A stretch of DNA of 64,000 nucleotides from a plasmid (NZ_KX832927.1); one strand, 5' to 3'. Counted from the first letter of the stretch, positions 32,742 through 45,854 are shown. Numbers and translations are program-made. The notes: generated by a model not told the origin, from the sequence alone.

Positions 32742-33561
32742 GGCACTGTTGCAAAGTTAGCGATGAGGCAGCCTTTTGTCTTATTCAAAGGCCTTACATT
32801 TCAAAAACTCTGCTTACCAGGCGCATTTCGCCCAGGGGATCACCATAATAAAATGCTGAGGCCTGGCCTTTGCGTAGTGCACGCATCACCTCAATACCTT
32901 TGATGGTGGCGTAAGCCGTCTTCATGGATTTAAATCCCAGCGTGGCGCCGATTATCCGTTTCAGTTTGCCATGATCGCATTCAATCACGTTGTTCCGGTA
33001 CTTAATCTGTCGGTGTTCAACGTCAGACGGGCACCGGCCTTCGCGTTTGAGCAGAGCAAGCGCGCGACCATAGGCGGGCGCTTTATCCGTGTTGATGAAT
33101 CGCGGGATCTGCCACTTCTTCACGTTGTTGAGGATTTTACCCAGAAACCGGTATGCAGCTTTGCTGTTACGACGGGAGGAGAGATAAAAATCGACAGTGC
33201 GGCCCCGGCTGTCGACGGCCCGGTACAGATACGCCCAGCGGCCATTGACCTTCACGTAGGTTTCATCCATGTGCCACGGGCAAAGATCGGAAGGGTTACG
33301 CCAGTACCAGCGCAGCCGTTTTTCCATTTCAGGCGCATAACGCTGAACCCAGCGGTAAATCGTGGAGTGATCGACATTCACTCCGCGTTCAGCCAGCATC
33401 TCCTGCAGCTCACGGTAACTGATGCCGTATTTGCAGTACCAGCGTACGGCCCACAGAATGATGTCACGCTGAAAATGCCGGCCTTTGAATGGGTTCATGT
33501 GCAGCTCCATCAGCAAAAGGGGATGATAAGTTTATCACCACCGACTATTTGCAACAGTGCC
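32742..33561 (-). mobile_element. IS26: IS26 (820 bp)
   Basis: 14-bp IRs GGCACTGTTGCAAA at 32742 and TTTGCAACAGTGCC at 33548-33561. Confidence 0.95.
32794..33498 (-). CDS. tnpA(IS26): IS26 transposase Tnp26
   Basis: MNPFKGRHFQRDIILWAVRWYCKYGISYRELQEMLAERGVNVDHSTIYRWVQRYAPEM... Confidence 0.95.
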   Translation of the reverse strand: MNPFKGRHFQRDIILWAVRWYCKYGISYRELQEMLAERGVNVDHSTIYRWVQRYAPEMEKRLRWYWRNPSDLCPWHMDETYVKVNGRWAYLYRAVDSRGRTVDFYLSSRRNSKAAYRFLGKILNNVKKWQIPRFINTDKAPAYGRALALLKREGRCPSDVEHRQIKYRNNVIECDHGKLKRIIGATLGFKSMKTAYATIKGIEVMRALRKGQASAFYYGDPLGEMRLVSRVFEM

Positions 33562-33569
33562 CTTTATTT

Positions 33570-34896
33570 AATGAGATGGTCACTCCCTCCTTCCCGGTAC
33601 TATGCTGAGGACAGGCTTTCATTCGGAGAACTATCATGGAAAACATTGCGCTCATTGGTATCGATCTGGGTAAAAACTCTTTCCATATTCATTGCCAGGA
33701 TCGTCGCGGGAAGGCTGTTTACCGTAAAAAATTTACCCGGCCAAAGTTGATCGAATTTTTGGCGACATGCCCCGCTACAACCATCGCAATGGAAGCCTGT
33801 GGCGGTTCTCACTTTATGGCACGCAAGTTGGAAGAGTTGGGGCATTCCCCAAAGCTGATATCACCACAATTTGTCCGCCCGTTCGTTAAAAGCAATAAAA
33901 ACGACTTTGTCGACGCCGAAGCTATTTGTGAAGCTGCATCGCGTCCGTCTATGCGTTTTGTGCAGCCCAGAACGGAATCTCAGCAGGCAATGCGGGCTCT
34001 GCATCGTGTCCGTGAATCCCTGGTTCAGGATAAGGTAAAAACAACCAATCAAATGCATGCTTTTCTGCTGGAATTTGGCATTAGCGTTCCCCGAGGAGCT
34101 GCCGTTATTAGCCGACTGAGTACCATTCTTGAGGATAATAGTTTGCCTCTTTACCTCAGCCAGTTATTGCTGAAATTACAACAGCATTATCACTATCTTG
34201 TTGAGCAGATTAAAGATTTGGAATCCCAGTTGAAACGAAAGTTGGACGAAGATGAGGTTGGACAGCGCTTGCTGAGCATTCCCTGCGTCGGAACACTGAC
34301 AGCGAGTACTATTTCAACTGAGATTGGCGACGGGAAGCAGTACGCCAGCAGCCGTGACTTTGCGGCGGCAACAGGGCTTGTACCTCGGCAGTACAGCACG
34401 GGAGGTAGGACGACATTGCTGGGAATTAGTAAGCGAGGTAATAAAAAGATCCGAACTTTGTTGGTTCAATGTGCCAGGGTATTCATACAAAAACTGGAAC
34501 ACCAGTCTGGCAAATTGGCCGATTGGGTCAGGGATTTACTGTGCCGGAAAAGCAACTTTGTCGTCACTTGTGCTCTGGCAAACAAGCTGGCCAGAATAGC
34601 CTGGGCCCTAACGGCACGACAGCAAACTTATGTAGCATAACGGCAGAAATACACCGGTTTAAAGAATTACTGATCTGGTTTTGCGAATACTGATATTGAT
34701 GATACTAACGGCCCACCGGCCTGTTGAGGAACCTGTAAAACGGAAAGGCTCATTGAAGCCGTATATTTTCTGGAGGTTCATCAGGCGCGGAACTCATCAA
34801 GGCGCGGGAATAAAATCCCATTCAGACGCCGGATAGATTCAAGCAAGCCAACTTGTCGTCAAAATCGGTGTTGCAAAAACGGGAGTGACCATAGAT
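33570..34896 (+). mobile_element. IS4321: IS4321/IS5075-like element (IS110 family, IS1111 subgroup) inserted in the 38-bp IR of a Tn21-family transposon
   Basis: Flanked by CTTTATTT on the left and TCCGTTTTCTGAGGCGACCCC on the right. Together these are the reverse complement of a Tn21-type IR, GGGGTCGCCTCAGAAAACGGA / AAATAAAG. Element ends TGAGATGGTCACTCCC…GGGAGTGACCATAGAT. Confidence 0.8.
33636..34640 (+). CDS. IS4321/IS5075 transposase (IS110 family)
   Basis: MENIALIGIDLGKNSFHIHCQDRRGKAVYRKKFTRPKLIEFLATCPATTIAMEACGGSHF...; 334 aa. Confidence 0.9.
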   Translation: MENIALIGIDLGKNSFHIHCQDRRGKAVYRKKFTRPKLIEFLATCPATTIAMEACGGSHFMARKLEELGHSPKLISPQFVRPFVKSNKNDFVDAEAICEAASRPSMRFVQPRTESQQAMRALHRVRESLVQDKVKTTNQMHAFLLEFGISVPRGAAVISRLSTILEDNSLPLYLSQLLLKLQQHYHYLVEQIKDLESQLKRKLDEDEVGQRLLSIPCVGTLTASTISTEIGDGKQYASSRDFAAATGLVPRQYSTGGRTTLLGISKRGNKKIRTLLVQCARVFIQKLEHQSGKLADWVRDLLCRKSNFVVTCALANKLARIAWALTARQQTYVA

Positions 34897-34917
34897 TCCG
34901 TTTTCTGAGGCGACCCC
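34897..34917 (-). repeat. Outer 21 bp of a Tn21-family 38-bp terminal IR, separated from its inner 8 bp by IS4321. The rest of the transposon was removed by IS26.
   Basis: TCCGTTTTCTGAGGCGACCCC. Confidence 0.7.
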
Positions 34918-34956
34918 CAGTATTCCGGCTTTCACGGCATCGTTATCCCCGGTACG

Positions 34957-35754
34957 TTGCGTGACTCTATCTTTGTGCTGGAAGGGCTTCTGGAGCAGCA
35001 GACGGGGCTGAATCCGGTGGAGATTATGACGGACACTGGAGGGTCCAGCGACATTATCTTTGGCCTGTTCTGGCTGCTGGGCTACCAGTTTTCGCCCCGC
35101 CTGGCAGATGCCGGTGAGGCGGTATTTTGGCGTGCAGATAAAAATGCGAACTACGGGGTACTGGATGAGCTGGCGCGGGGATGCGTTGAACTGTCAAAGA
35201 TAGAAACCCAATGGGATGAAATGATGAGGGTTTCCGGTTCTCTGAAGCTGGGTACAGTCCACGCCTCAGAACTTGTGGGCTCGCTTTTAAAAAGTTCCCG
35301 TCCGTCAGGGCTGGCGCAGGCGATTATGGAGGTGGGACGGGTCAACAAGACGCTGTACCTCCTCAACTACATTGATGATGAAGAATATCGTCGCAGGATA
35401 CTGACTCAGCTTAACCGGGGAGAAGGCCGTCACGCCGTGGCAAGGGCGATCTGTTACGGCCAACGTGGTGAGATTAGAAAACGTTACCGTGAGGGGCAGG
35501 AGGATCAACTGGGTGCGCTGGGGCTTGTCACTAACGCAGTTGTATTGTGGAACACGCTTTATATGCAGGAAGCGCTATCACATTTGCGCAGCGCTGGTGA
35601 GATCCCGGAAGACGAGCATATCTCACGCCTGTCGCCACTGATGTACGGTCATATCAACATGCTGGGACATTATACGTTCACGCTGCCGGAAAATATTCTG
35701 AAGGGAGAGTTGAGGCCATTAAATTTCAATTCAAACAATGAATTATTGCCTTAA
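34957..35754 (+). pseudogene. tnpA: 3' fragment (C-terminal 265 aa) of a Tn3-family transposase gene
   Basis: …DDEEYRRRILTQLNRGEGRHAVARAICYGQRGEIRKRYREGQEDQLGALGLVTNAVVLWNTLYMQ… is a Tn3-family TnpA C-terminus. It ends inside the 38-bp IR at 35749-35786, and its 5' end is cut by the Tn21-family IR at 34917. Confidence 0.75.
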
Positions 35755-36494: not shown

Positions 36495-36638
36495 ATGAGC
36501 AAATTTGCCCTGATAGGGCTGATTGCTGTGTGCATCACAGTTCTGTGCTTCTCATTGTTAATGCGTGATCGCTTATGTTCACTAAATTTCACAAGCGGAG
36601 GCACAGTGGTTCAAGCAACGTTATCTTGTGATAAGTAA
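36495..36638 (+). CDS. hok: Hok/Gef-family type I toxin (47 aa). It is not in the ORF track because it is under 60 aa.
   Basis: MSKFALIGLIAVCITVLCFSLLMRDRLCSLNFTSGGTVVQATLSCDK has the Hok/Gef signature: an N-terminal transmembrane helix, R-D-x-L-C, and a short periplasmic tail. The upstream region, with a mok-like overlap and space for a Sok promoter, sits within the 36326..36604 antisense ORF. Confidence 0.7.
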   Translation: MSKFALIGLIAVCITVLCFSLLMRDRLCSLNFTSGGTVVQATLSCDK

Positions 36639-37052: not shown

Positions 37053-37152
37053 AGGTTTTTATTATAGTTGTTTAATAGAACTATCATACATTTATTATAG
37101 TTCTATTTTATAGGTAATTTTCATATCAATTGTAATTAAGATAAAAAAATTA

Positions 37153-38067
37153 CTATCTCAACTCAATCTCTTTCGCCAACTTATTGTATTTGTAATTCGT
37201 AATTTGGCCATTTACTAATAATTCAACGGCTTGTTGAATCACATTTAAAGGCGCAATAAACCACTCTTTAGGTTGATGATTTTTACCATCTTTATCTGCA
37301 ACAAATAAATCAAGGCAAGACTCACCAAAGAAAGCATGTAAGTAATATTCAAATTTCTGTGGGTTAATATTGAATGCTTGATACTCAGCAATTACGTCAA
37401 CATCAGCCATCAAATAGGTAGGTTCTTTTTTTGCATTAGCAATACGTTTTTCAACAGTTGTAGTTGCAAATCCAATTTTATAGAGGTGATCAAGTGACTG
37501 AATACGTGGATCTTTACTTTGTGACTTTAGGATATAAATATAACCTGTAGATGTATCATCTTCGGTAATACCGCCAAAATGAGTATAGAAATTGGAGTTT
37601 TCTTGCTCATTCGTTTCTGAAACAATACGTCCATCTTTATACAATGCTTTAGCTAGTGAGCGATAAAGCATAGTTGATTCGGTGCCATTCTCAAAGATGG
37701 TTCGTGTCCGACCATCTTTACGAAAACGCTTGCCATCCACGGTTTTAGCCTCAGACGTAAAATTGATATCTGCAAGATAAACCAGCAAGCCATTTAAAAC
37801 ATAGTAATTACCTTCAACTAGTTGGTATCCCTTATCGTTGAAAGGTAATAACTTACGTTTACCTTCCCGAAGCTCTTGATGAACATTTTTAAATAGATGT
37901 TCAAATTGATCAAAGTCCTTACAGCGTTTGCGTTTAGCAACCTCGTCTGCAGCAGCACGTTGGGCAGTAACATGTTTAATCTTAAAGATGTCACCATCTT
38001 GACCATCATCTAGTAGACCTAGATCATCATCATTAAAAATATCTTCGAGAGATTTAATCTCAGACAT
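37153..38067 (-). CDS. T5orf172 (GIY-YIG-like) domain protein with a coiled N-terminal region. This is gene 4 of the candidate defence operon and a putative nuclease effector.
   Basis: C-terminal block TGYIYILKSQSKDPRIQSLDHLYKIGFATTTVEKRIANAK…VIAEYQ matches the T5orf172/MUG113 signature. The N-terminus contains DDDLGLL. A 3-nt gap separates it from the upstream gene. Confidence 0.6.
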   Translation of the reverse strand: MSEIKSLEDIFNDDDLGLLDDGQDGDIFKIKHVTAQRAAADEVAKRKRCKDFDQFEHLFKNVHQELREGKRKLLPFNDKGYQLVEGNYYVLNGLLVYLADINFTSEAKTVDGKRFRKDGRTRTIFENGTESTMLYRSLAKALYKDGRIVSETNEQENSNFYTHFGGITEDDTSTGYIYILKSQSKDPRIQSLDHLYKIGFATTTVEKRIANAKKEPTYLMADVDVIAEYQAFNINPQKFEYYLHAFFGESCLDLFVADKDGKNHQPKEWFIAPLNVIQQAVELLVNGQITNYKYNKLAKEIELR

Positions 38068-38070
38068 GTT

Positions 38071-38358
38071 TTAGTCCTGCTGTTCTGGGAGCAAATTATG
38101 TTCATCGTAATCTGCCAAAGCCATATATTGCTCTGGATTACTCTTGATCGATTCTAGACGACTCGCAAGCATAAACTCCGAAATGTTTGCCATATTTTTG
38201 GTAGGTACACGTCCATGCTGTGTCATAAAGTTATTGATTTCATTAAATTTAGAGACTAATTGTTCATCAGCAGTTAGGGCTGAAGTCTTTTTCTTAACTT
38301 TTAAAAGCCCCAAATCGTCATCAGCAATCATATCGTGAAGCCAGTCAAAATCTTCCAT
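38071..38358 (-). CDS. Small acidic protein (95 aa), gene 3 of the operon
   Basis: Shares the N-terminal motif D(I/M)xxDDDLGLL with the 304-aa protein. Gaps to its neighbours are 3 nt. Confidence 0.5.
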   Translation of the reverse strand: MEDFDWLHDMIADDDLGLLKVKKKTSALTADEQLVSKFNEINNFMTQHGRVPTKNMANISEFMLASRLESIKSNPEQYMALADYDEHNLLPEQQD

Positions 38359-38361
38359 GTT

Positions 38362-40293
38362 TTACACTCCAGCTCGTCTACGTTGTTCACGAATATAGAT
38401 TAAGCATTCAGCTAGTCGCTTCTCAATTAAGTTACTTGACTCTAGACTAGGTTCACGTCCTGTTTGTTTAGTGAAGGCTTTGAGTTTAGGCCACAGCTCA
38501 ATTGCTTCTTCCTGAGTCATACTAATTTTAGTTGCTTCAATTGCTTCTTTAATCAATTTCAAAACATTCACTGTGACATCCTTTGACAGAATCTCAAAAG
38601 CCTTTTGGAATGGATTCACAGATTGAATAAGATCAATATTGAGATCATCAATATTGACAAACTTATCCGCCATACGAATAAATTTCTTATCACCGACTTC
38701 TTTTACTTCTGCTGTACTAATCACTGAGTCAACTACTAAATATTGACTCACTTCCTCAAGCTCTGATTTTGTTAAATCTGGATATTTAGTTTGGATAATC
38801 TTTGGAATAAGGACCTTATTGACTACTTCAGGCTCAACCTTTCCAGCAGAGCCAGCGATCACTTTGGCATCTTGAAGAATTGCTGCTTTTAGATCCACAA
38901 GATCATTTTCAATAATCGCTTTTGTTTTTGCTGTACTTGGTTCTTTAAATCCTTTGATGGTTAAAGTGCCTGGTGGAACAATATCCTCATCATCTCGTTT
39001 AGTTTTAAACTTGAAGTTTGGTGCAAGGATCTGCTCCATGAGCAAAGATGCAGTAATTGCTTTAAGCATGTTATTTACTGCAAATTTGACTTCAGTATCT
39101 TGAGCATCAGGTTGTGCAATAAGATTTGTGAACTGTGCATGTGATTTGTTTGAGCTATCACGAGTACAGCGACCTACGATTTGCACAATTTCTGTCAAAG
39201 ATCCCCGATAACCAATCGTTAAGGCATGTTCACAGAATTGCCAGTCAAACCCTTCTTTTGCCATTCCAAGAGCAATAATTAGATCAAGATCATCGACTGT
39301 TTTGATATTTCGTAGATATTCAACAACTTTGTCGCGCCCATCTTCTTCAACTAGATCAGCTACTTTTAAAATCTTACCATCTGGACGTTTGATGGTAATA
39401 ATGCCAGTATCGGGGGCTTTAGCAATGAACTCGCCAATAATTTCGAGAATGGCATCAACTTCATCATATTTATCTTTGGTTGATTCACCTGAATTTACAT
39501 TTGGAATATGAATGATGGTCTTTTTGTCGGTATCTAATACATACTCAAGAGCAATATTACCTTCATCATCTTTAGTAAAATAACGACCTTTATAAAAGTG
39601 ATATCCTATGCCAAGTGATTTTAAGTAAGTGTAACCATTTAATTGTTCATAATAGTTGAACGAAACTTTATCAAACTTGGCTTCATCTTCAGGGGTAAGT
39701 ACAGGAACGCTATCACCACGGAAGTAAGAGCCTGTCATTGCAATAATATGAGCTGTGGTATTGTCCATCAGAGATTTAAGAACAGTACCTAAAATATTAT
39801 CGGCATCTGCTGATACATGATGGAATTCATCAATTGCGACTAATGTGTTGTCAAATACCTTATCTTCAAGCTCTTCAAAAGCGAATCTTAATGTAGCATG
39901 GGTACACACCAAGATCTGATCAGAGTCTTCTATAAAGCGTTTAAAGGCTTTTACTTTGCTTTTGTCCCCACCAGCAGTACATAAGTTGTTTTCAGGTTTA
40001 ATATCCCAATCTGCAAAAAAACCATTTTCTGTAAGCTTAGTGTTAGCAAATGAACCACCGATAGAGCGTTCAGGTACAGCTACGATAACTTTTTTAATAC
40101 CTTGATTATGCAGTTTATCCAACGCTAGGAACATTAATGCACGAGATTTACCTGAAGCGGGTGGTGCTTTTAACAATAAATATTGTGAGTTGCGAGATGC
40201 GTAAGCACGAGCTTGCATAGCCCGCATACCCATGTTGTTTGTTGAGGTGCTTTCACCAGTTTGCTGGTAACAAACATCAATTATATTAATCAT
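38362..40293 (-). CDS. SF2 helicase (DEAD/DEAH-like, DEFH box) with a C-terminal domain of about 250 aa and unknown function; gene 2 of the operon
   Basis: Motif I LKAPPASGKS, motif II AIDEFHHV, motif III MTGSY, motif VI QIVGRCTR. Its start overlaps the stop of the upstream MTase gene (ATGATTAA). Confidence 0.75.
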   Translation of the reverse strand: MINIIDVCYQQTGESTSTNNMGMRAMQARAYASRNSQYLLLKAPPASGKSRALMFLALDKLHNQGIKKVIVAVPERSIGGSFANTKLTENGFFADWDIKPENNLCTAGGDKSKVKAFKRFIEDSDQILVCTHATLRFAFEELEDKVFDNTLVAIDEFHHVSADADNILGTVLKSLMDNTTAHIIAMTGSYFRGDSVPVLTPEDEAKFDKVSFNYYEQLNGYTYLKSLGIGYHFYKGRYFTKDDEGNIALEYVLDTDKKTIIHIPNVNSGESTKDKYDEVDAILEIIGEFIAKAPDTGIITIKRPDGKILKVADLVEEDGRDKVVEYLRNIKTVDDLDLIIALGMAKEGFDWQFCEHALTIGYRGSLTEIVQIVGRCTRDSSNKSHAQFTNLIAQPDAQDTEVKFAVNNMLKAITASLLMEQILAPNFKFKTKRDDEDIVPPGTLTIKGFKEPSTAKTKAIIENDLVDLKAAILQDAKVIAGSAGKVEPEVVNKVLIPKIIQTKYPDLTKSELEEVSQYLVVDSVISTAEVKEVGDKKFIRMADKFVNIDDLNIDLIQSVNPFQKAFEILSKDVTVNVLKLIKEAIEATKISMTQEEAIELWPKLKAFTKQTGREPSLESSNLIEKRLAECLIYIREQRRRAGV

Positions 40294-43006
40294 TTAAACG
40301 CTCCTCCTCAATCATCTTATTATAAAGATTAAAAAGGTGCTCAAGTCTTTCTTCATCTGAATCTAATGTTTTTTTATAATAGCACTGCTCAACAATTCTA
40401 TCATTTTCCTGATGTGCTAATAATAGATCTAATGGCATAGTATCTGGATCATATAATTTAGACATTGGTAAATTTGAATATGTTTCTCTAATCGTTAAGA
40501 TGTTAAATGCTGATGCAACTAACTCCTCCTTTAACTCCTTAGTAATTTTAGGAAATGGGAATGTATTGTAGCAAAGCACCGATGAATACCTTAAACGTGT
40601 CTCAAGTGCCCCTCCGACAGCTCTTACCCAAAGCATGTGCATTTTGGATGTTAGAAGGGAAAATACATAAGGTTCTGGATTATATATAGCAAACGCAAGA
40701 TTATTAATTATGATCGAATCATCTAAAAAACCTATCGGAATATATGGACGACGTTCCGAAGATGTTCCTGGAATAATTATAGCTGAACCTGCTTGGTGTC
40801 TAATCTCAATAAAACGATATGGACGATCGGCAAATTGTTGATATGACTTTTTTTTACTTTGTGCACGCTCGACATACACTGAATTTAACCGCTCTTGCAT
40901 TGGTGGAATATCCTTAATTTCATGTAAATCTCCTTCTGATATCCATAAACACCATCTGTCTATGCCTTTAATAAACTCATTAGAACCAACAACTTTTTTA
41001 ATAAATGGTTTTAATTTTGGATACTCATTAATTAATTGATCCTTTTCTTCTGTTGAAAAATGCAAATATCCCCAATCATTAGGCATATTTCCTAAAACCA
41101 TTTTAGGTAAATTTGATAGAACTTTTGTTCTTTTAGAGACAGTAGGAGTATTTAAAGAGGTTAAATAAGGACTAATATTTTTGCAAACTAGGACTCTATT
41201 TTCCTGATAAAGCTTTCTATTTAAAGGCAAGTATTCGTTATTAATCAATCCAACAATAATACATGTAACACCTGCATTAGATTTTGCACTATTAGTCCAT
41301 TTAAAAGCTTTATGTGCAAAATGTATATCTACATTATTTTGATAAATGAGAGGCCAAAGTAATGAAACTTGCTCCCCTTGAGATAAAGAGTTTGTTGAAA
41401 CAAATGCAAGAGAGCCTTTAGTACTTTTAATATATTGTGAACCTTTAATAAACCAACAGGATATATAATCTAATTTCGTAGTTGAACCAATTACAGCATA
41501 TAAATCATTTTTTTGACTTTCTGATTGTTGTGAAAAACCTTTGTAAGGAGGGTTCCCTAGCACGAAGACTTCATCGTTTTCTGTAATTGGACATAGATCT
41601 GACCAACTTATTTGGACGGCATTTGCATTTATGATATTACCTCCTTTTTTAAGAGGTAAGGATGGTAAAGATTCTCCAAATTCATCTTTAAAAGCAATAT
41701 TCATTTGGTGTTCAGCTAACCATAAAGATAATATGGCTATTTCATGTGCAAAATCATCAATTTCTATACCATAAAATTGAGAAACCTGAATCACTGAAAA
41801 TGGTTTTGAAAGCTGACCTGTTTTATCAAGTTCAAGCTCTTGAATACGTTTTAAAAGCTCCTTTTCAAACTTACGAAGCTCTTTATAAGCAATAATAAGA
41901 AAGTTTCCTGAACCACATGCAGGGTCAAAAATTTTCAATTGCCCTAAACGCTGCTGTAGCTGCAATAATTTATTTATGCTGTCCTGATTCTTTTCTAGTT
42001 CTTCGTAAAGGTCATTCAAAAATAAAGGTTCAATAACCTTCATAATATTTGGAACAGACGTATAGTGCTGTCCCATATTGCTACGTTGTTCCGTATGAAC
42101 AACTGCTTGGAACATTGAACCAAAAATATCAGGATTAATATCAGACCAATCTAATTCTGCACCACATTCAATCAAGATTTGGCGTGATTTACGGTTAAAT
42201 TTAGGAACTTGGATATCATCCTTAAAGAGACCACCATTTACATAAGGAAAATCTGATAAGTAGTCTGGTAGATCTTTAGGGCGTTGCTGTTTTGATTGAT
42301 TTAAAACAACAAACAATCGCTTTAAATAGTCTGATAGATCTGAACCATCTTGTTTTGTATGAGAACCAATAGCATCAGAAAACTGTTTATCTTTGAAAAT
42401 TTCTGTATCTTCAGCAAAATAACAAAACAGTAATCGTGATAAGAAAATATTGAGTTGATGTAAATTCTCTTTATTATTTAAGCCATCTTCATCGAAATTA
42501 TCTGCTTTAATTTCGTCAAAGAGCTTTGCCAATTTTTCGGCTGCTTTAACATCCGCTGGGTTTTCACCCTGATATACAGCTTTCTCCATCCCAGCCCATG
42601 GTAGGAAGAAATCAAATTTTTTAGCTAAATCACTAAACTCGATATCCAAACTATCATTTGTTTTGGTATCAATAGCTAATAATTTTTTAAAATCCGTGAC
42701 TATTAAGAAACGAATCTTATTGCCTTCAGTTCGTCTTTCTTGCTTCATTTGGTCAATGAGACCATATAGATCTTGTTGTTTTGCAATTTTAAAATAGAGT
42801 TGGCGCTTCCAAAAAACAGAGTTTTCCTTATCTTCAGCTAAATTTCGCTCACCAGAGCGCACACGCCCCACAGACTGACTGCGATGTCCATAAGCTAAAA
42901 GCAACTCATAGATAAAGTCTTGTTTGTTTAACTCATCTTGAGTAATTTTACTGATGATCTGTTTAACATTTTCTTCGATTTGGACAATATTCATGTGACA
43001 TGACAA
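40286..43006 (-). CDS. MmeI-like (Type IIL/IIG-type) fusion protein: N-terminal PD-(D/E)xK-like nuclease region, gamma-class N6-adenine DNA methyltransferase, and C-terminal TRD; gene 1 of the operon
   Basis: 906 aa. Candidate nuclease motif IVTD-x8-IDTK near residue 100. MTase motif X HYTSVPNIM, motif I DPACGSGNFL and motif IV GNPPY, in gamma-class order. About 380 aa of C-terminal TRD-like sequence. The size and domain order fit the MmeI family. Confidence 0.7.
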   Translation of the reverse strand: MSCHMNIVQIEENVKQIISKITQDELNKQDFIYELLLAYGHRSQSVGRVRSGERNLAEDKENSVFWKRQLYFKIAKQQDLYGLIDQMKQERRTEGNKIRFLIVTDFKKLLAIDTKTNDSLDIEFSDLAKKFDFFLPWAGMEKAVYQGENPADVKAAEKLAKLFDEIKADNFDEDGLNNKENLHQLNIFLSRLLFCYFAEDTEIFKDKQFSDAIGSHTKQDGSDLSDYLKRLFVVLNQSKQQRPKDLPDYLSDFPYVNGGLFKDDIQVPKFNRKSRQILIECGAELDWSDINPDIFGSMFQAVVHTEQRSNMGQHYTSVPNIMKVIEPLFLNDLYEELEKNQDSINKLLQLQQRLGQLKIFDPACGSGNFLIIAYKELRKFEKELLKRIQELELDKTGQLSKPFSVIQVSQFYGIEIDDFAHEIAILSLWLAEHQMNIAFKDEFGESLPSLPLKKGGNIINANAVQISWSDLCPITENDEVFVLGNPPYKGFSQQSESQKNDLYAVIGSTTKLDYISCWFIKGSQYIKSTKGSLAFVSTNSLSQGEQVSLLWPLIYQNNVDIHFAHKAFKWTNSAKSNAGVTCIIVGLINNEYLPLNRKLYQENRVLVCKNISPYLTSLNTPTVSKRTKVLSNLPKMVLGNMPNDWGYLHFSTEEKDQLINEYPKLKPFIKKVVGSNEFIKGIDRWCLWISEGDLHEIKDIPPMQERLNSVYVERAQSKKKSYQQFADRPYRFIEIRHQAGSAIIIPGTSSERRPYIPIGFLDDSIIINNLAFAIYNPEPYVFSLLTSKMHMLWVRAVGGALETRLRYSSVLCYNTFPFPKITKELKEELVASAFNILTIRETYSNLPMSKLYDPDTMPLDLLLAHQENDRIVEQCYYKKTLDSDEERLEHLFNLYNKMIEEERLND

Positions 43007-43061
43007 CCATTTTTAAGCTGATAATTTGTTAAATAAACAATGAGTTAATATGACTAAGAAC

Positions 43062-43334
43062 CTATCCCAATAGGTTTTTATTCCAGACAATGACACCACA
43101 GGCAAAATGCAGCATCGCCTCATAATTCTCGACTTTCTTCTCCCAACGAGTCAGGACACGACGATAGCGATTCATCCAACTGTGTGTTCTCTCTACAACC
43201 CAGCGGTGAGCCTTAAAATCCGTGTTTTTGATGGCTTCTGACTCATCCTTCCGTGACTGGATATGAGGTTCATAGCGACGACTTTTCAGATACGATTTCA
43301 ACCATTCCGCTTCATACCCTTTGTCCATGCACAA
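43062..43334 (-). CDS. IS5-family transposase OrfB (C-terminal DDE part)
   Basis: …HRWVVERTHSWMNRYRRVLTRWEKKVENYEAMLHFACGVIVWN… is a typical IS5/IS427-group C-terminus. Confidence 0.7.
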   Translation of the reverse strand: MCMDKGYEAEWLKSYLKSRRYEPHIQSRKDESEAIKNTDFKAHRWVVERTHSWMNRYRRVLTRWEKKVENYEAMLHFACGVIVWNKNLLG

Positions 43335-43455
43335 CCGGAGCCTCTTGCATGGTCTGCCCGTCTGGAGGGCATCGAGCGTATCCGCAACCAGCTTTATGTT
43401 CCGGCTACAACCAGTGCAAGCGGAAGCCTGTTCGCGTCAGTCATCAGACTGCGCT

Positions 43456-43854
43456 TTACTCCCTGTTTCCCACGGTCTGTAGGGTTCCGGCCTGTTTTTT
43501 TGAGCCTGCCAGGGGTGATTTTGTCATACAACCATCAATCGACAGCCACGACCAGTCAATAGCGTCCAGCTGTTCGCTGGCAAGCAACCCGTTTTGCCAG
43601 AAGCGTTCAAATACGCCAGCATCCCGCCACTCTTGAAATCGGCGGTGAGCAGAGCTTGACGAGCATATACCGGTGGCATTCAGCGCATTCCACTGGCAAC
43701 CCGTCCTGAGTACGAAGAAGATGGCGTTCATTGCAGCGCGATTATCAACCCGCTTGCGGTGCGTACCCAGAGGATGGTGAGTTTTATGCTCCGGAATCAG
43801 TTGAGCCATTTTCTCCCAGAGTCCATCACTGATCTGCCACTTGTTGCCCGTCAC
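43456..43854 (-). CDS. IS5-family transposase OrfA (N-terminal HTH part)
   Basis: MTGNKWQISDGLWEKMAQLIPEHKTHHPLGTHRKRVDNRAAMNAIFFVLRTGCQWNALN… is an IS5/IS427-group N-terminus. Confidence 0.7.
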   Translation of the reverse strand: MTGNKWQISDGLWEKMAQLIPEHKTHHPLGTHRKRVDNRAAMNAIFFVLRTGCQWNALNATGICSSSSAHRRFQEWRDAGVFERFWQNGLLASEQLDAIDWSWLSIDGCMTKSPLAGSKKQAGTLQTVGNRE

Positions 43855-44013
43855 GCTTCGCCTTCAGAAATTATCATTATGTATTATCTGACAATTCCTT
43901 TTGGGATAGGTTCTTAATGATGATATAGCATTATCTAAAGGAATTTGATTACTTGTTGCTGTGTGTAGTGTTTCATTTTCCATTCTATCCCATAACCCTT
44001 TTAAGTATTATAT

Positions 44014-44346
44014 CTATCCTATTAACGCCTTTGCTTTAGCTTTTATCTCTGCCAGTTCTGATGCTTCCACTTTGCCTTTTTTAGTAACCTTACGAGCTCT
44101 CCAGTCAACACAAGTAACTTGATCAGCTAATGCGTAGCTGTCTCTTTCGTTCGAGATCTCGCATTCAAATGGATAGCCTTTGCCTTTAGTTGTACATGGT
44201 ACGCATAGTAAGAGCCCTACTTTATTATTGTATGCAAATGGACTGAGGACAACAGCAGGACGATGACCGCCCTGCTCATGTCCCTCAACTGGATCAAAAT
44301 CAATCCAAATCAAATCACCAGAATCAGGCACGTAGCGAGATACCAT
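44014..44346 (-). CDS. mazF: MazF/PemK-family endoribonuclease toxin
   Basis: MVSRYVPDSGDLIWIDFDPVEGHEQGGHRPAVVLSPFAYNNKVGLLLCVPCTTKGKGYPFE… is close to E. coli MazF. Confidence 0.9.
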   Translation of the reverse strand: MVSRYVPDSGDLIWIDFDPVEGHEQGGHRPAVVLSPFAYNNKVGLLLCVPCTTKGKGYPFECEISNERDSYALADQVTCVDWRARKVTKKGKVEASELAEIKAKAKALIG

Positions 44347-44591
44347 TATATTAATTCCTTACCTGTGCGAGCTCCGAAATCTACTTTCTCATGAATATTT
44401 TCCGGTGTGATACCGGCTAACAAATTATCTAATGAGTATTCTACCGCTTTAACTGGCGTAATGATGATACGACCTTCTTCTACCGCTATTTCAACCGTAT
44501 CATCAACGCTAAGTGCCGCTTTTTGCATGATTGCAACAGGAAGCCGTACAGACGGGCTATTGCCCCATTTTTTTACTGTGACCTGAGCCAT
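44346..44591 (-). CDS. mazE: MazE/PemI-family antitoxin
   Basis: MAQVTVKKWGNSPSVRLPVAIMQKAALSVDDTVEI…ITPENIHEKVDFG is MazE-like. Its stop overlaps the mazF start. Confidence 0.9.
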   Translation of the reverse strand: MAQVTVKKWGNSPSVRLPVAIMQKAALSVDDTVEIAVEEGRIIITPVKAVEYSLDNLLAGITPENIHEKVDFGARTGKELI

Positions 44592-44911: not shown

Positions 44912-45535
44912 GTGAAGGTAATTTCTTTTTTAAATCCGAAAGGCGGGTCTGGAAAAACAACCACCGTCATAAACGTTGCTACTGCTATGCAAAGAGCCGG
45001 TTATTCGTTAGCGGTTGTCGATACAGACCCTCAAATGAGCCTATCTAACTGGTCTAAAGAAGGGAACTGTGATTACGATGTTTTCACCGCAGCCAGTGAG
45101 AAAGACGTTTATAGCATCCGTAAGGATCTAAGTGATTATGATTTTGTCATTGTAGATGGTGCTGGTTCACTTTCTGTAATTACTTCAGCAGCGGTTATGG
45201 TTAGCGACCTTGTTATAATTCCAGTCTCGCCAAGCCCTCTTGATTTTTCCGCAGCCGGTAGTGTTACATCAGTTCTTGAAGCTCAGGCATACAGCCGCAA
45301 AGTAGAAGCTAGGTTCCTGATCACTCGCAAAATTGACCAAACCACTATGTTGCAAGTATTAAAAGACAACCTCAAAGATACCGGCTTACCTTCTTTCAAA
45401 ACCGCCATTGCTCAACGGCAGAGCTATATTAAATCTATTCTGGATGGTAAGAGTATTTTTGAAACTAACGATGGTAATGCAAAAGGCGAGATTGAAATAC
45501 TAACCAAAGAAATTCTGACTATTTTTGAGTCATAA
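44912..45535 (+). CDS. parA: Small ParA-type (type Ib) partition ATPase
   Basis: MKVISFLNPKGGSGKTTTVINVATAM… with a deviant Walker A motif; 207 aa. Confidence 0.85.
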   Translation: MKVISFLNPKGGSGKTTTVINVATAMQRAGYSLAVVDTDPQMSLSNWSKEGNCDYDVFTAASEKDVYSIRKDLSDYDFVIVDGAGSLSVITSAAVMVSDLVIIPVSPSPLDFSAAGSVTSVLEAQAYSRKVEARFLITRKIDQTTMLQVLKDNLKDTGLPSFKTAIAQRQSYIKSILDGKSIFETNDGNAKGEIEILTKEILTIFES

Positions 45536-45626
45536 TGTGAACTAACACATAAACACAAATGTGTGTTTACACATAAGCACTAAAACACAAAAGCGCATAT
45601 GTGTTTTTAATGAAAAGAGATACTTT

Positions 45627-45854
45627 ATGGCACTAGAAAAAGTAAATGAATCATCAAATTCACAAAAGATGAAGTTCGGTGAAAACAGAGACTTAGATAA
45701 AATTCTTGAAAAAAGTACAAAAACAAAACGTATAAATGTAGATCTTGATGAAGATACTCAAATTCGATTCAAATCTGCATGTGTCAAACGAAACACCACT
45801 ATGAAAGATGTAATATCAGATTATGTTCATCAGTGGCTGAAGCAAAATGAATAG
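45627..45854 (+). CDS. Small partition-adaptor-like protein (ParG/RHH-like) downstream of parA
   Basis: 76 aa from the ATG at 45627 (MALEKVNESSN…). The position and size are typical of a type Ib ParG. The track ORF is over-extended at its 5' end (from 45561). Confidence 0.5.
   Translation: MALEKVNESSNSQKMKFGENRDLDKILEKSTKTKRINVDLDEDTQIRFKSACVKRNTTMKDVISDYVHQWLKQNE

Follow-up and report, generated by a model that had tools for sequence, protein, structure and literature searches.

MmeI (Type IIL/IIG) carries an N-terminal nuclease, with the catalytic residues V69-D70 ... E80-M81-K82 (PMC4833311), together with an N6-adenine methyltransferase and a target recognition domain (TRD) in one chain. 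Its homologues have been divided into two sets (Morgan et al., 2009, PMC2731913). Members of the YeeA subgroup "invariably" have a DEAD helicase (YeeB) and a GIY-YIG protein (YeeC) as flanking neighbours, and it was proposed that the methyltransferase provides specificity and protection, and the helicase and nuclease scission; two subgroup members, Bacillus subtilis YeeA and a Moraxella osloensis protein, showed no endonuclease activity (Morgan et al., 2009, PMC2731913). REBASE counts "several hundred members" with OspHL35III as the prototype (Blow et al., 2016, PMC4752239). The B. subtilis member is known as DnmA and forms N6-methyladenine (m6A) at GACGAG (PMC7261158, PMC9973331), and Vibrio crassostreae became sensitive again to one phage subgroup when yeeAB was inactivated (bioRxiv 10.1101/2021.05.05.442762). 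The subject of the present analysis is an operon on plasmid NZ_KX832927.1, from which a stretch of 64,000 nucleotides (nt), the window, was analysed and supplies all coordinates below.

This locus is probably an intact plasmid-borne member of the YeeA(DnmA)-YeeB-YeeC family (REBASE OspHL35III type), that is, a system derived from Type IIG and resembling restriction-modification (RM), with a split yeeC and with restriction that would be methyltransferase-dependent and driven by ATP. It has an MmeI-family methyltransferase/TRD protein devoid of the PD-ExK catalytic residues, a YeeB-type superfamily 2 (SF2) helicase downstream of it on the same strand, and a GIY-YIG/T5orf172 YeeC downstream of the helicase, split in two here. 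The original prediction, made from the sequence alone, regarded the operon as a candidate for an undescribed defence system, whereas the family is already on record (PMC2731913, PMC4752239, PMC7261158, PMC9973331, bioRxiv 10.1101/2021.05.05.442762). It is a known RM-like family, biochemically uncharacterised, with neither solved structures nor biochemistry for YeeB and YeeC, and the fission of YeeC is specific to a lineage.

Operon structure and recurrence of the gene set

The open reading frame (ORF) listing gives the following genes, numbered in operon order, with the conserved form of gene 1 beside its longest ORF:

40286-43006, minus strand: gene 1, yeeA/dnmA-like ORF of 906 amino acids (aa) with a TTG start at 43006
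40286-42994, minus strand: yeeA/dnmA-like gene from the conserved ATG, 902 aa, MmeI-family N6-adenine methyltransferase with TRD
38362-40293, minus strand: gene 2, yeeB, 643 aa
38071-38358, minus strand: gene 3, 5' fragment of yeeC, 95 aa
37153-38067, minus strand: gene 4, 3' fragment of yeeC, 304 aa

Four packed minus-strand ORFs, the first stop overlapping the second start, had been claimed, and both the listing and the junction sequences confirm them. Genes 1 and 2 overlap by 8 nt (ATGATTAA, with GAGGAGGAG before it). The junctions between genes 2 and 3 and between genes 3 and 4 are identical, TAA-AAC-ATG with GGAG or AGGA upstream, and genes 2, 3 and 4 therefore share one reading frame. 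All junctions are tight, each having a Shine-Dalgarno-like sequence, and the four ORFs are one co-translated operon. A 9-nt sequence, TAAAACATG, is repeated at the junctions of genes 2/3 (38359-38364) and 3/4 (38068-38073), and the latter, the fission junction, perhaps arose as a copy of the former. The operon is AT-rich, as had been noted, with 31-37% guanine plus cytosine (GC) against 47-52% in the adjoining mobile-element stretch. Translations and homologue alignments show the catalytic motifs of every ORF to be intact.

The family was surveyed by scanning one genome per species with a YeeB alignment, which confirmed at least 591 loci; detailed locus counts refer to the best 80 of these, examined by tblastn with the four window proteins and by ORF extraction. 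The recurrence of an MmeI-like gene, a helicase and a T5orf172 gene, for which such a survey had been suggested, is thus established in at least 591 species-level genomes, and for this reason the arrangement is beyond chance. The best 80 loci span more than 15 phyla (Pseudomonadota, Bacteroidota, Bacillota, Actinomycetota, Planctomycetota, Chlamydiota, Campylobacterota, lineages of the candidate phyla radiation and others), with YeeB 61-93% identical. YeeA is found in 67 of them, and in each of the remaining 13 the sequence upstream of the helicase is shorter than 2.4 kb, so that wherever the flanks are long enough YeeA occurs together with YeeB and YeeC. The genes run yeeA-yeeB-yeeC along a single strand, the sole exception being L025 with yeeA downstream of yeeC, and the YeeB stop and the YeeC start overlap by 8 nt in 30 loci. 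Across bacterial phyla, the synteny and translational coupling of the three genes are kept. YeeB occurs on 234 plasmids and is nearly absent from phage genomes (three fragments in 50,697 records).

Between distant phyla (L004-L083; Chlamydiota, candidate phyla radiation, Actinomycetota and Pseudomonadota), identity is 61-72% for YeeB, 42-57% for YeeA and 35-60% for YeeC. Such conservation of YeeB is unusually high for a defence gene, and points to strong constraint together with frequent horizontal transfer.

Features of YeeA, YeeB and the split YeeC

Gene 1 starts at the ATG at 42994 (M5 of the ORF) and not at the TTG at 43006, because the homologue consensus begins MNIxQIE. Its product matches all five MmeI domains of Pfam (MmeI_N, MmeI_hel, MmeI_Mtase, MmeI_TRD and MmeI_C), the PADLOC model REase_MTase_IIG (PDLC03598) over its full length with an E-value of 5.5e-301, and the MmeI structure 5HR4 with an E-value of 3.5e-195. 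The following parts are distinguished in it:

42503-42994, minus strand: YeeA N-terminal domain, ORF residues 5-168, homologous to the MmeI nuclease domain, without D70/E80/K82
42658-42693, minus strand: TD-x7-D-x-K hairpin, ORF residues 105-115
41234-41998, minus strand: gamma-class N6-adenine methyltransferase domain, Pfam MmeI_Mtase, residues 337-591
40544-41146, minus strand: target recognition domain, Pfam MmeI_TRD, residues 621-821, the most divergent part of the operon

All methyltransferase motifs quoted in the original prediction are present, namely HYTSVPNIM, DPACGSGNFL (motif I) and GNPPY/NPPY (motif IV), and motifs I and IV are kept in 53 homologues. The MmeI architecture assigned to gene 1 is therefore correct as to its five domains, whereas its description as a nuclease-methyltransferase fails at the catalytic residues. 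In the pairwise alignment with 5HR4, D70, E80 and K82 of MmeI correspond to S63, K73 and a gap, and in the profile alignment of 21 subgroup members they correspond to E, K and V of the subgroup consensus. Because these residues are missing, gene 1 belongs to the YeeA/DnmA subgroup, and YeeA is an MmeI-family methyltransferase/TRD protein that has lost the nuclease catalytic residues of MmeI. The pattern IVTD-x8-IDTK had been taken for a PD-(D/E)xK site. This candidate was rejected as the MmeI active site, since D70/E80/K82 align elsewhere, and the TD-x7-D-T-K hairpin of gene 1 aligns with MmeI residues 114-125 (CDF...TDLI), which are non-catalytic there. The hairpin is nevertheless conserved in the YeeA subgroup, with either aspartate in at least 90% and the lysine in at least 70% of the sequences, whereas MmeI has D...D-x-I at the place of TD-x7-D-x-K. 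Its role could be a structural one, or it could serve as an interaction surface or as a relocated active site.

Gene 2 matches DEAD, ResIII and, weakly, Helicase_C in Pfam, in agreement with its earlier assignment to SF2. The motifs PPASGKS, DEFHH and QIVGRCTR are present, and motifs I, II and VI do not vary among 15 homologues; relatives with 71% identity bear the source name "ATP-dependent helicase YeeB". Its ATPase motifs being intact, YeeB is regarded as an SF2 helicase/translocase, with a core at about residues 26-378 and a C-terminal domain at about residues 395-643. The AlphaFold2 (AF2) model of YeeB, based on a shallow alignment, is poor (mean predicted local distance difference test score, pLDDT, 56). 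Among its few confident stretches are residues 591-640, with a block-mean pLDDT of about 80-91, which cover the following feature:

38368-38514, minus strand: C-terminal helical hairpin of YeeB, residues ~594-642, resembling the helicase-associated (HA, PF03457) repeat; a motif common to the 95-aa protein

Profile searches of YeeB and YeeC against sequences of the Protein Data Bank (PDB) gave no matches.

In gene 3 nothing is found by Pfam, and in gene 4 T5orf172/MUG113 is found at residues 175-283, as the original prediction had it. Genes 3 and 4 (95 and 304 aa) are colinear with fused YeeC, gene 3 corresponding to its residues 1-95, and the matches to both belong to a single ORF of 380-425 aa in 74 of the 80 loci. 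The 95-aa ORF is thus the split-off N-terminus of YeeC, so that the system has three components and not the four once supposed. The parts of YeeC are as follows:

38302-38322, minus strand: first DDDLGLL copy, residues 13-19 of the 95-aa protein
38011-38031, minus strand: second DDDLGLL copy, residues 13-19 of the 304-aa protein
37219-37545, minus strand: T5orf172/GIY-YIG-type nuclease domain with GYIY ... YKIG ... R ... E ... EWF

Homologues of gene 4 with at least 66% identity all have 304 aa, and those with at most 61% mostly have about 385-440 aa. The split is therefore old within one clade, comprising Acinetobacter, Serratia, Snodgrassella, Commensalibacter and these Morganellaceae plasmids. 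The spacer between genes 3 and 4 is 3 nt and in frame here vs. 4 nt and out of frame in Acinetobacter, which argues for stable gene fission and not for a recent nonsense mutation; programmed read-through of the in-frame TAA was rejected on account of the same out-of-frame spacer. At loci L026 and L072, YeeC is split elsewhere, past the second DDxLGLL motif, and since the split point differs, fission has occurred at least twice.

The 95-aa protein consists of a DDDLGLL peptide and a three-helix HA-like module, and the 304-aa protein of a second DDDLGLL peptide, a beta-rich middle domain and the T5orf172 domain. The duplication of DDxLGLL is recovered by HHalign with a probability of 89% over 15 columns (module 1 vs. 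module 2). The AF2 model of a fused YeeC homologue (57% identical to gene 4; mean pLDDT 77, predicted template modelling score 0.39) is usable only one domain at a time. It has a short N-terminal helix with DDxLGLL, a confident three-helix module (residues 30-83), a disordered linker with the second DDxLGLL, the beta-rich middle domain and the T5orf172 domain. The residues GYIY/YKIG/R/E/EWF are conserved in YeeC homologues, and YeeC is a protein of the T5orf172 (GIY-YIG-type) family. Foldseek found nothing for this model in the PDB at an E-value of 0.001 or less, and the structural assignments to GIY-YIG and Tudor/SH3-like folds are accordingly to be read as leads.

A phmmer search of the full library with gene 3 gave 348 representative-level relatives; among the 150 matches listed, nearly all are N-terminal in the target and many targets are of YeeC length. 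It also matches one protein with six HA repeats, on which the description of the module as HA-like is based; a Pfam scan of the 95-aa module family gave only sub-threshold PMBR matches. This module is similar to the last helices of YeeB over 33 columns (HHalign, probability 93%, E-value 3e-7), suggesting that the YeeC N-terminus and the YeeB C-terminus have an HA-like helical module in common.

A metagenomic locus (L085, 2148-9665) has an MmeI-like methyltransferase, a YeeB split by an insertion sequence (IS) and a 554-aa protein in which the N-terminal modules of YeeC and half of T5orf172 are followed by a terminal Mrr_cat nuclease domain. Its origin could lie in the exchange of one effector for another, or in a chance fusion while the locus decayed; L085 was rejected as proof of the former, being a single locus with an IS-disrupted helicase and half of T5orf172 kept.

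Probable specificity change, loss of yeeA and plasmid setting

Compared with the nearest Acinetobacter operon, YeeB is 93% and YeeC 92% identical, and within YeeA the identity falls from 85% in the N-terminal domain to 66% in the methyltransferase and 42% in the TRD, a gradient which would be expected for specificity swapping. In 22 of the 54 loci with full-length YeeA, the gap between yeeA and yeeB holds 0.5-5.7 kb of extra genes on the same strand (such loci include L011, L014, L016, L041, L042, L047, L062 and L081). Of ten samples of this cargo, eight have Pfam matches: RhuM, AAA_15/AbiEii-like, AAA_13, AlbA_2 with HATPase_c_4, and DEAD helicase. Type I RM operons carry embedded cargo of the same kind, and the gap appears to be a hotspot at which accessory defence genes insert.

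The operon of the window is intact. Elsewhere yeeA is lost by IS insertion with yeeB and yeeC intact. In Proteus terrae plasmids, which have identical DNA, its 5' half has been removed by IS26, and in Morganella morganii pDZa, ISVsa5 is inserted near its 3' end. In Acinetobacter baumannii Tn2009, yeeA has been removed and yeeB truncated by ISAba1. The repeated loss would be explained by a dependence of restriction on the methyltransferase subunit, through which it would be tolerated. Deletion of dnmA in B. subtilis is viable (PMC7261158, PMC9973331). The Tn2009 (blaOXA-23) remnant of A. baumannii pABTJ1 (L002, 9749-12365) has a split yeeC, the 95-aa ORF and a truncated yeeB at about 85% DNA identity to the window; in the Tn2009 literature the Acinetobacter copies are named YeeB and YeeC-like (PMC9241911). 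Separate YeeB fragments (residues 1-156) are carried by dozens of A. baumannii plasmids.

On the plasmid, the operon is bordered by the following elements:

~43053-43926, minus strand: IS5-family element with two overlapping-frame ORFs of 132 aa and 90 aa, oriented like the operon
36495-36638: hok/gef gene for a 47-aa Hok/Gef toxin, downstream of the operon

The original prediction of an operon bounded by IS ends holds only in part. At the 5' end the IS5-family element ends 59 nt upstream of the yeeA ATG and forms the upstream boundary. This element shares about 93% identity with copies on plasmids of Vibrio and Shigella, and homology to the Acinetobacter operons is limited to 37152-43047. It probably displaced the native yeeA promoter: in a promoter scan, no promoter-like site was found upstream of yeeA, and consensus sites were fewer than in shuffled sequence. 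Transcription may start from the IS5-family element, or may be impaired. Beyond the 3' end, an AT-rich piece of plasmid DNA of 1.4 kb, with the hok/gef gene, lies between the operon and a Tn3-family fragment, an IS110-family element and IS26. The small ORFs downstream of the operon are common to Proteus and Morganella plasmids.

Maintenance genes lie at 44014-44591 and 44912-45854 (a mazF/pemK-like toxin with its antitoxin, parA and parG). A mosaic at 32794-35754, composed of IS26 transposase, IS110-family transposase (33636-34640) and a C-terminal fragment of Tn3-family transposase (34957-35754), borders a GC-rich (55-65%) block at about 23-33 kb, which is probably a resistance region.

Kinship with other systems and probable mode of action

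The OspHL35III-type clusters have the same three families in the same order, on the same strand and translationally coupled, with an MmeI architecture lacking the PD-ExK residues. The present locus differs from them in that YeeC is made as a 95-aa and a 304-aa ORF, in its location on a Morganellaceae plasmid, and in a TRD unlike those of all close relatives, on account of which its specificity is probably different. PADLOC, NCBIfam and PHROGs scans of genes 2-4 gave weak partial matches (Cas3, PbeA, PDC-S57 and phrog_16) and no named system; having no meaningful model for these genes, automated pipelines cannot name it. The earlier statement that the exact combination could not be assigned to a named system agrees with PADLOC and NCBIfam, which have no models for genes 2-4. 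The membership of genes 2-4 in a named system, which hidden Markov model (HMM) matches had been expected to reveal, is given in substance by literature and synteny, not by HMM matches.

YeeA aligns with MmeI end to end over the methyltransferase, helical spacer, TRD and C-terminal domains, and their N-terminal domains are homologous. As in Type IIL enzymes, the gamma-class N6-adenine methyltransferase, TRD and C-terminal domain are in one chain. In contrast to MmeI, D70/E80/K82 are not conserved, and no N-terminal PD-ExK site (D70 ... E80-x-K82) remains. MmeI alone cuts DNA 20 bp off its site without ATP, whereas YeeA always occurs with a helicase and a separate nuclease, and the solo action of Type IIL enzymes without steady neighbours does not apply to it. 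The two groups were distinguished by neighbour genes already by Morgan et al. (2009, PMC2731913).

The Type ISP enzymes (LlaGI/LlaBIII) unite the same functions, namely nuclease, SF2 helicase, gamma-class adenine methyltransferase and a single TRD. Modification of one strand at an asymmetric site would be expected in common, and Type ISP is the best mechanistic analogue (translocation, then cleavage). The likeness observed is one of functions and does not extend, as far as shown, to the helicase sequence. Type ISP is a single polypeptide with a Mrr-type PD-(D/E)xK nuclease, whereas three to four polypeptides from separate ORFs, with a GIY-YIG-type (T5orf172) nuclease, are found here. Type I RM systems (HsdM/HsdS/HsdR) also separate the methyltransferase from motor-nuclease subunits, and have a hypervariable specificity module and intra-operon defence cargo; in both, restriction presumably needs the methyltransferase/specificity subunit. 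On the other hand, the TRD is fused to the methyltransferase here, the nuclease is a separate GIY-YIG-type protein and not an HsdR PD-ExK domain, and the YeeA site is probably short and asymmetric, not bipartite. No match to the HsdS and HsdR families was found in Pfam, NCBIfam or PADLOC. The likeness to Hachiman, which had been suggested, was not borne out, with no match to HamA/HamB in PADLOC or to DUF1837 in Pfam. As for BREX and DISARM, the matches are limited to partial ones of the methyltransferase/TRD region to PglX and DrmMI, below curated cut-offs, and the neighbours are IS5, mazEF, parA and hok, none of them a BREX or DISARM partner.

The following mode of action is inferred from the proposal of Morgan et al. 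(2009) and from analogy with Type I and Type ISP systems. YeeA would recognise a short asymmetric site and methylate one adenine (single-strand m6A), marking self DNA. At an unmodified site it would recruit YeeB via its degenerate N-terminal domain, YeeB would translocate DNA with ATP, and YeeC would cut the DNA in an ATP-dependent manner. As with Type I and Type ISP systems, the methyltransferase subunit would be required for restriction. A role of the DDxLGLL peptides and HA-like modules as tethers is added here to that proposal, and would account for a YeeC that can be split between the two peptide copies, each half keeping one. Beyond it, the N-terminal part of YeeC, with its two DDxLGLL peptides and HA-like module, might tentatively be regarded as a portable adaptor which docks the nuclease effector onto the YeeA-YeeB motor, works in trans and may accept other effectors, such as the Mrr-type nuclease of L085, the free 95-aa form possibly having become a regulatory subunit that gates nuclease recruitment in the lineage of the window; this is rather doubtful, though an adaptor able to work in trans would explain why YeeC fissioned at least twice at different points. 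A related idea is that the YeeA hairpin may be a relocated second active site.

Several points weigh against methyltransferase-dependent restriction at this locus. YeeA alone is without endonuclease activity (Morgan et al., 2009, PMC2731913). In B. subtilis, plasmid transformation is not restricted by the operon, single deletions of yeeB or yeeC leave the susceptibility to three phages unchanged, and its authors call the operon a relic (PMC7261158, PMC9973331). Cleavage has been demonstrated biochemically for no family member, the AF2 model of YeeB is too poor for classifying the motor, and the steps of translocation and collision are drawn by analogy, not from evidence. Expression is uncertain, an IS5-family element lying 59 nt upstream of yeeA and no promoter-like site having been found there. 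The main rival accordingly holds that the locus is a relic or orphan with no restriction, in which YeeA is only an epigenetic m6A methyltransferase and yeeB and yeeC are carried along. DnmA does regulate some promoters, besides the missing restriction and phage phenotypes in B. subtilis (PMC7261158, PMC9973331); the adjoining IS5-family element may have cost the operon its promoter, the splitting of YeeC could mark progress toward decay, and sister copies are IS-disrupted. Nevertheless, the catalytic motifs are intact in all ORFs, and the split form persists to 66% identity with both halves conserved and with spacers of 3 vs. 4 nt, which does not fit a recent nonsense mutation. The B. subtilis proteins also lack stretches found in the active Vibrio homologue (Fernandez et al., 2023). 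A relic is thus unlikely.

Still less credible is a self-sufficient MmeI-type Type IIL nuclease-methyltransferase beside an independent pair of helicase and small nuclease, or a novel four-component system. It would accommodate the five MmeI domains including MmeI_N, the D-x7-D-x-K pattern conserved in the N-terminal domain, and the persistence of helicase and split yeeC in Tn2009 without the methyltransferase. However, D70/E80/K82 are replaced throughout the subgroup, two of whose members showed no endonuclease activity (PMC2731913), YeeA occurs with YeeB and YeeC wherever flanks suffice, the Tn2009 copy is a remnant truncated by ISAba1 (PMC9241911), and the 95-aa ORF is part of YeeC. There is a similarly slim chance of methylation-guided exclusion without cutting, as in BREX, or of mobile-element competition or plasmid maintenance in place of phage defence. 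The location beside mazEF, hok and par genes, the weak partial PADLOC matches to PglX and DrmMI, and the B. subtilis recognition motif, which is not depleted in phage genomes (Fernandez et al., 2023), would agree with it. Against this, genes for PglZ, BrxC, BrxL and DrmA/B/C were not found nearby, the GIY-YIG-type domain is conserved with its catalytic residues, which argues for cleavage, and a phage phenotype was reported in Vibrio (bioRxiv 10.1101/2021.05.05.442762). A defence system with Type ISP-like logic, as originally predicted, is upheld as the most likely reading.

The details new to this family are the repeated fission of YeeC, the DDxLGLL duplication, the HA-like module in YeeC and YeeB, and the defence cargo in the yeeA-yeeB gap. 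The family is widespread, with at least 591 species-level genomes, more than 15 phyla, 234 plasmids and remnants in the blaOXA-23 transposon Tn2009, and pipelines misleadingly label such loci as a solitary Type IIG enzyme beside "DEAD helicase / hypothetical / GIY-YIG". With the 95-aa ORF known as a YeeC fragment, it will not be miscounted as a new component. For a "split Type ISP" mechanism the family offers a good candidate, with the adaptor motifs as targets of mutagenesis, and the phage susceptibility and DNA uptake of a host could be affected where its conjugative-type Morganellaceae resistance plasmid bears an intact copy.

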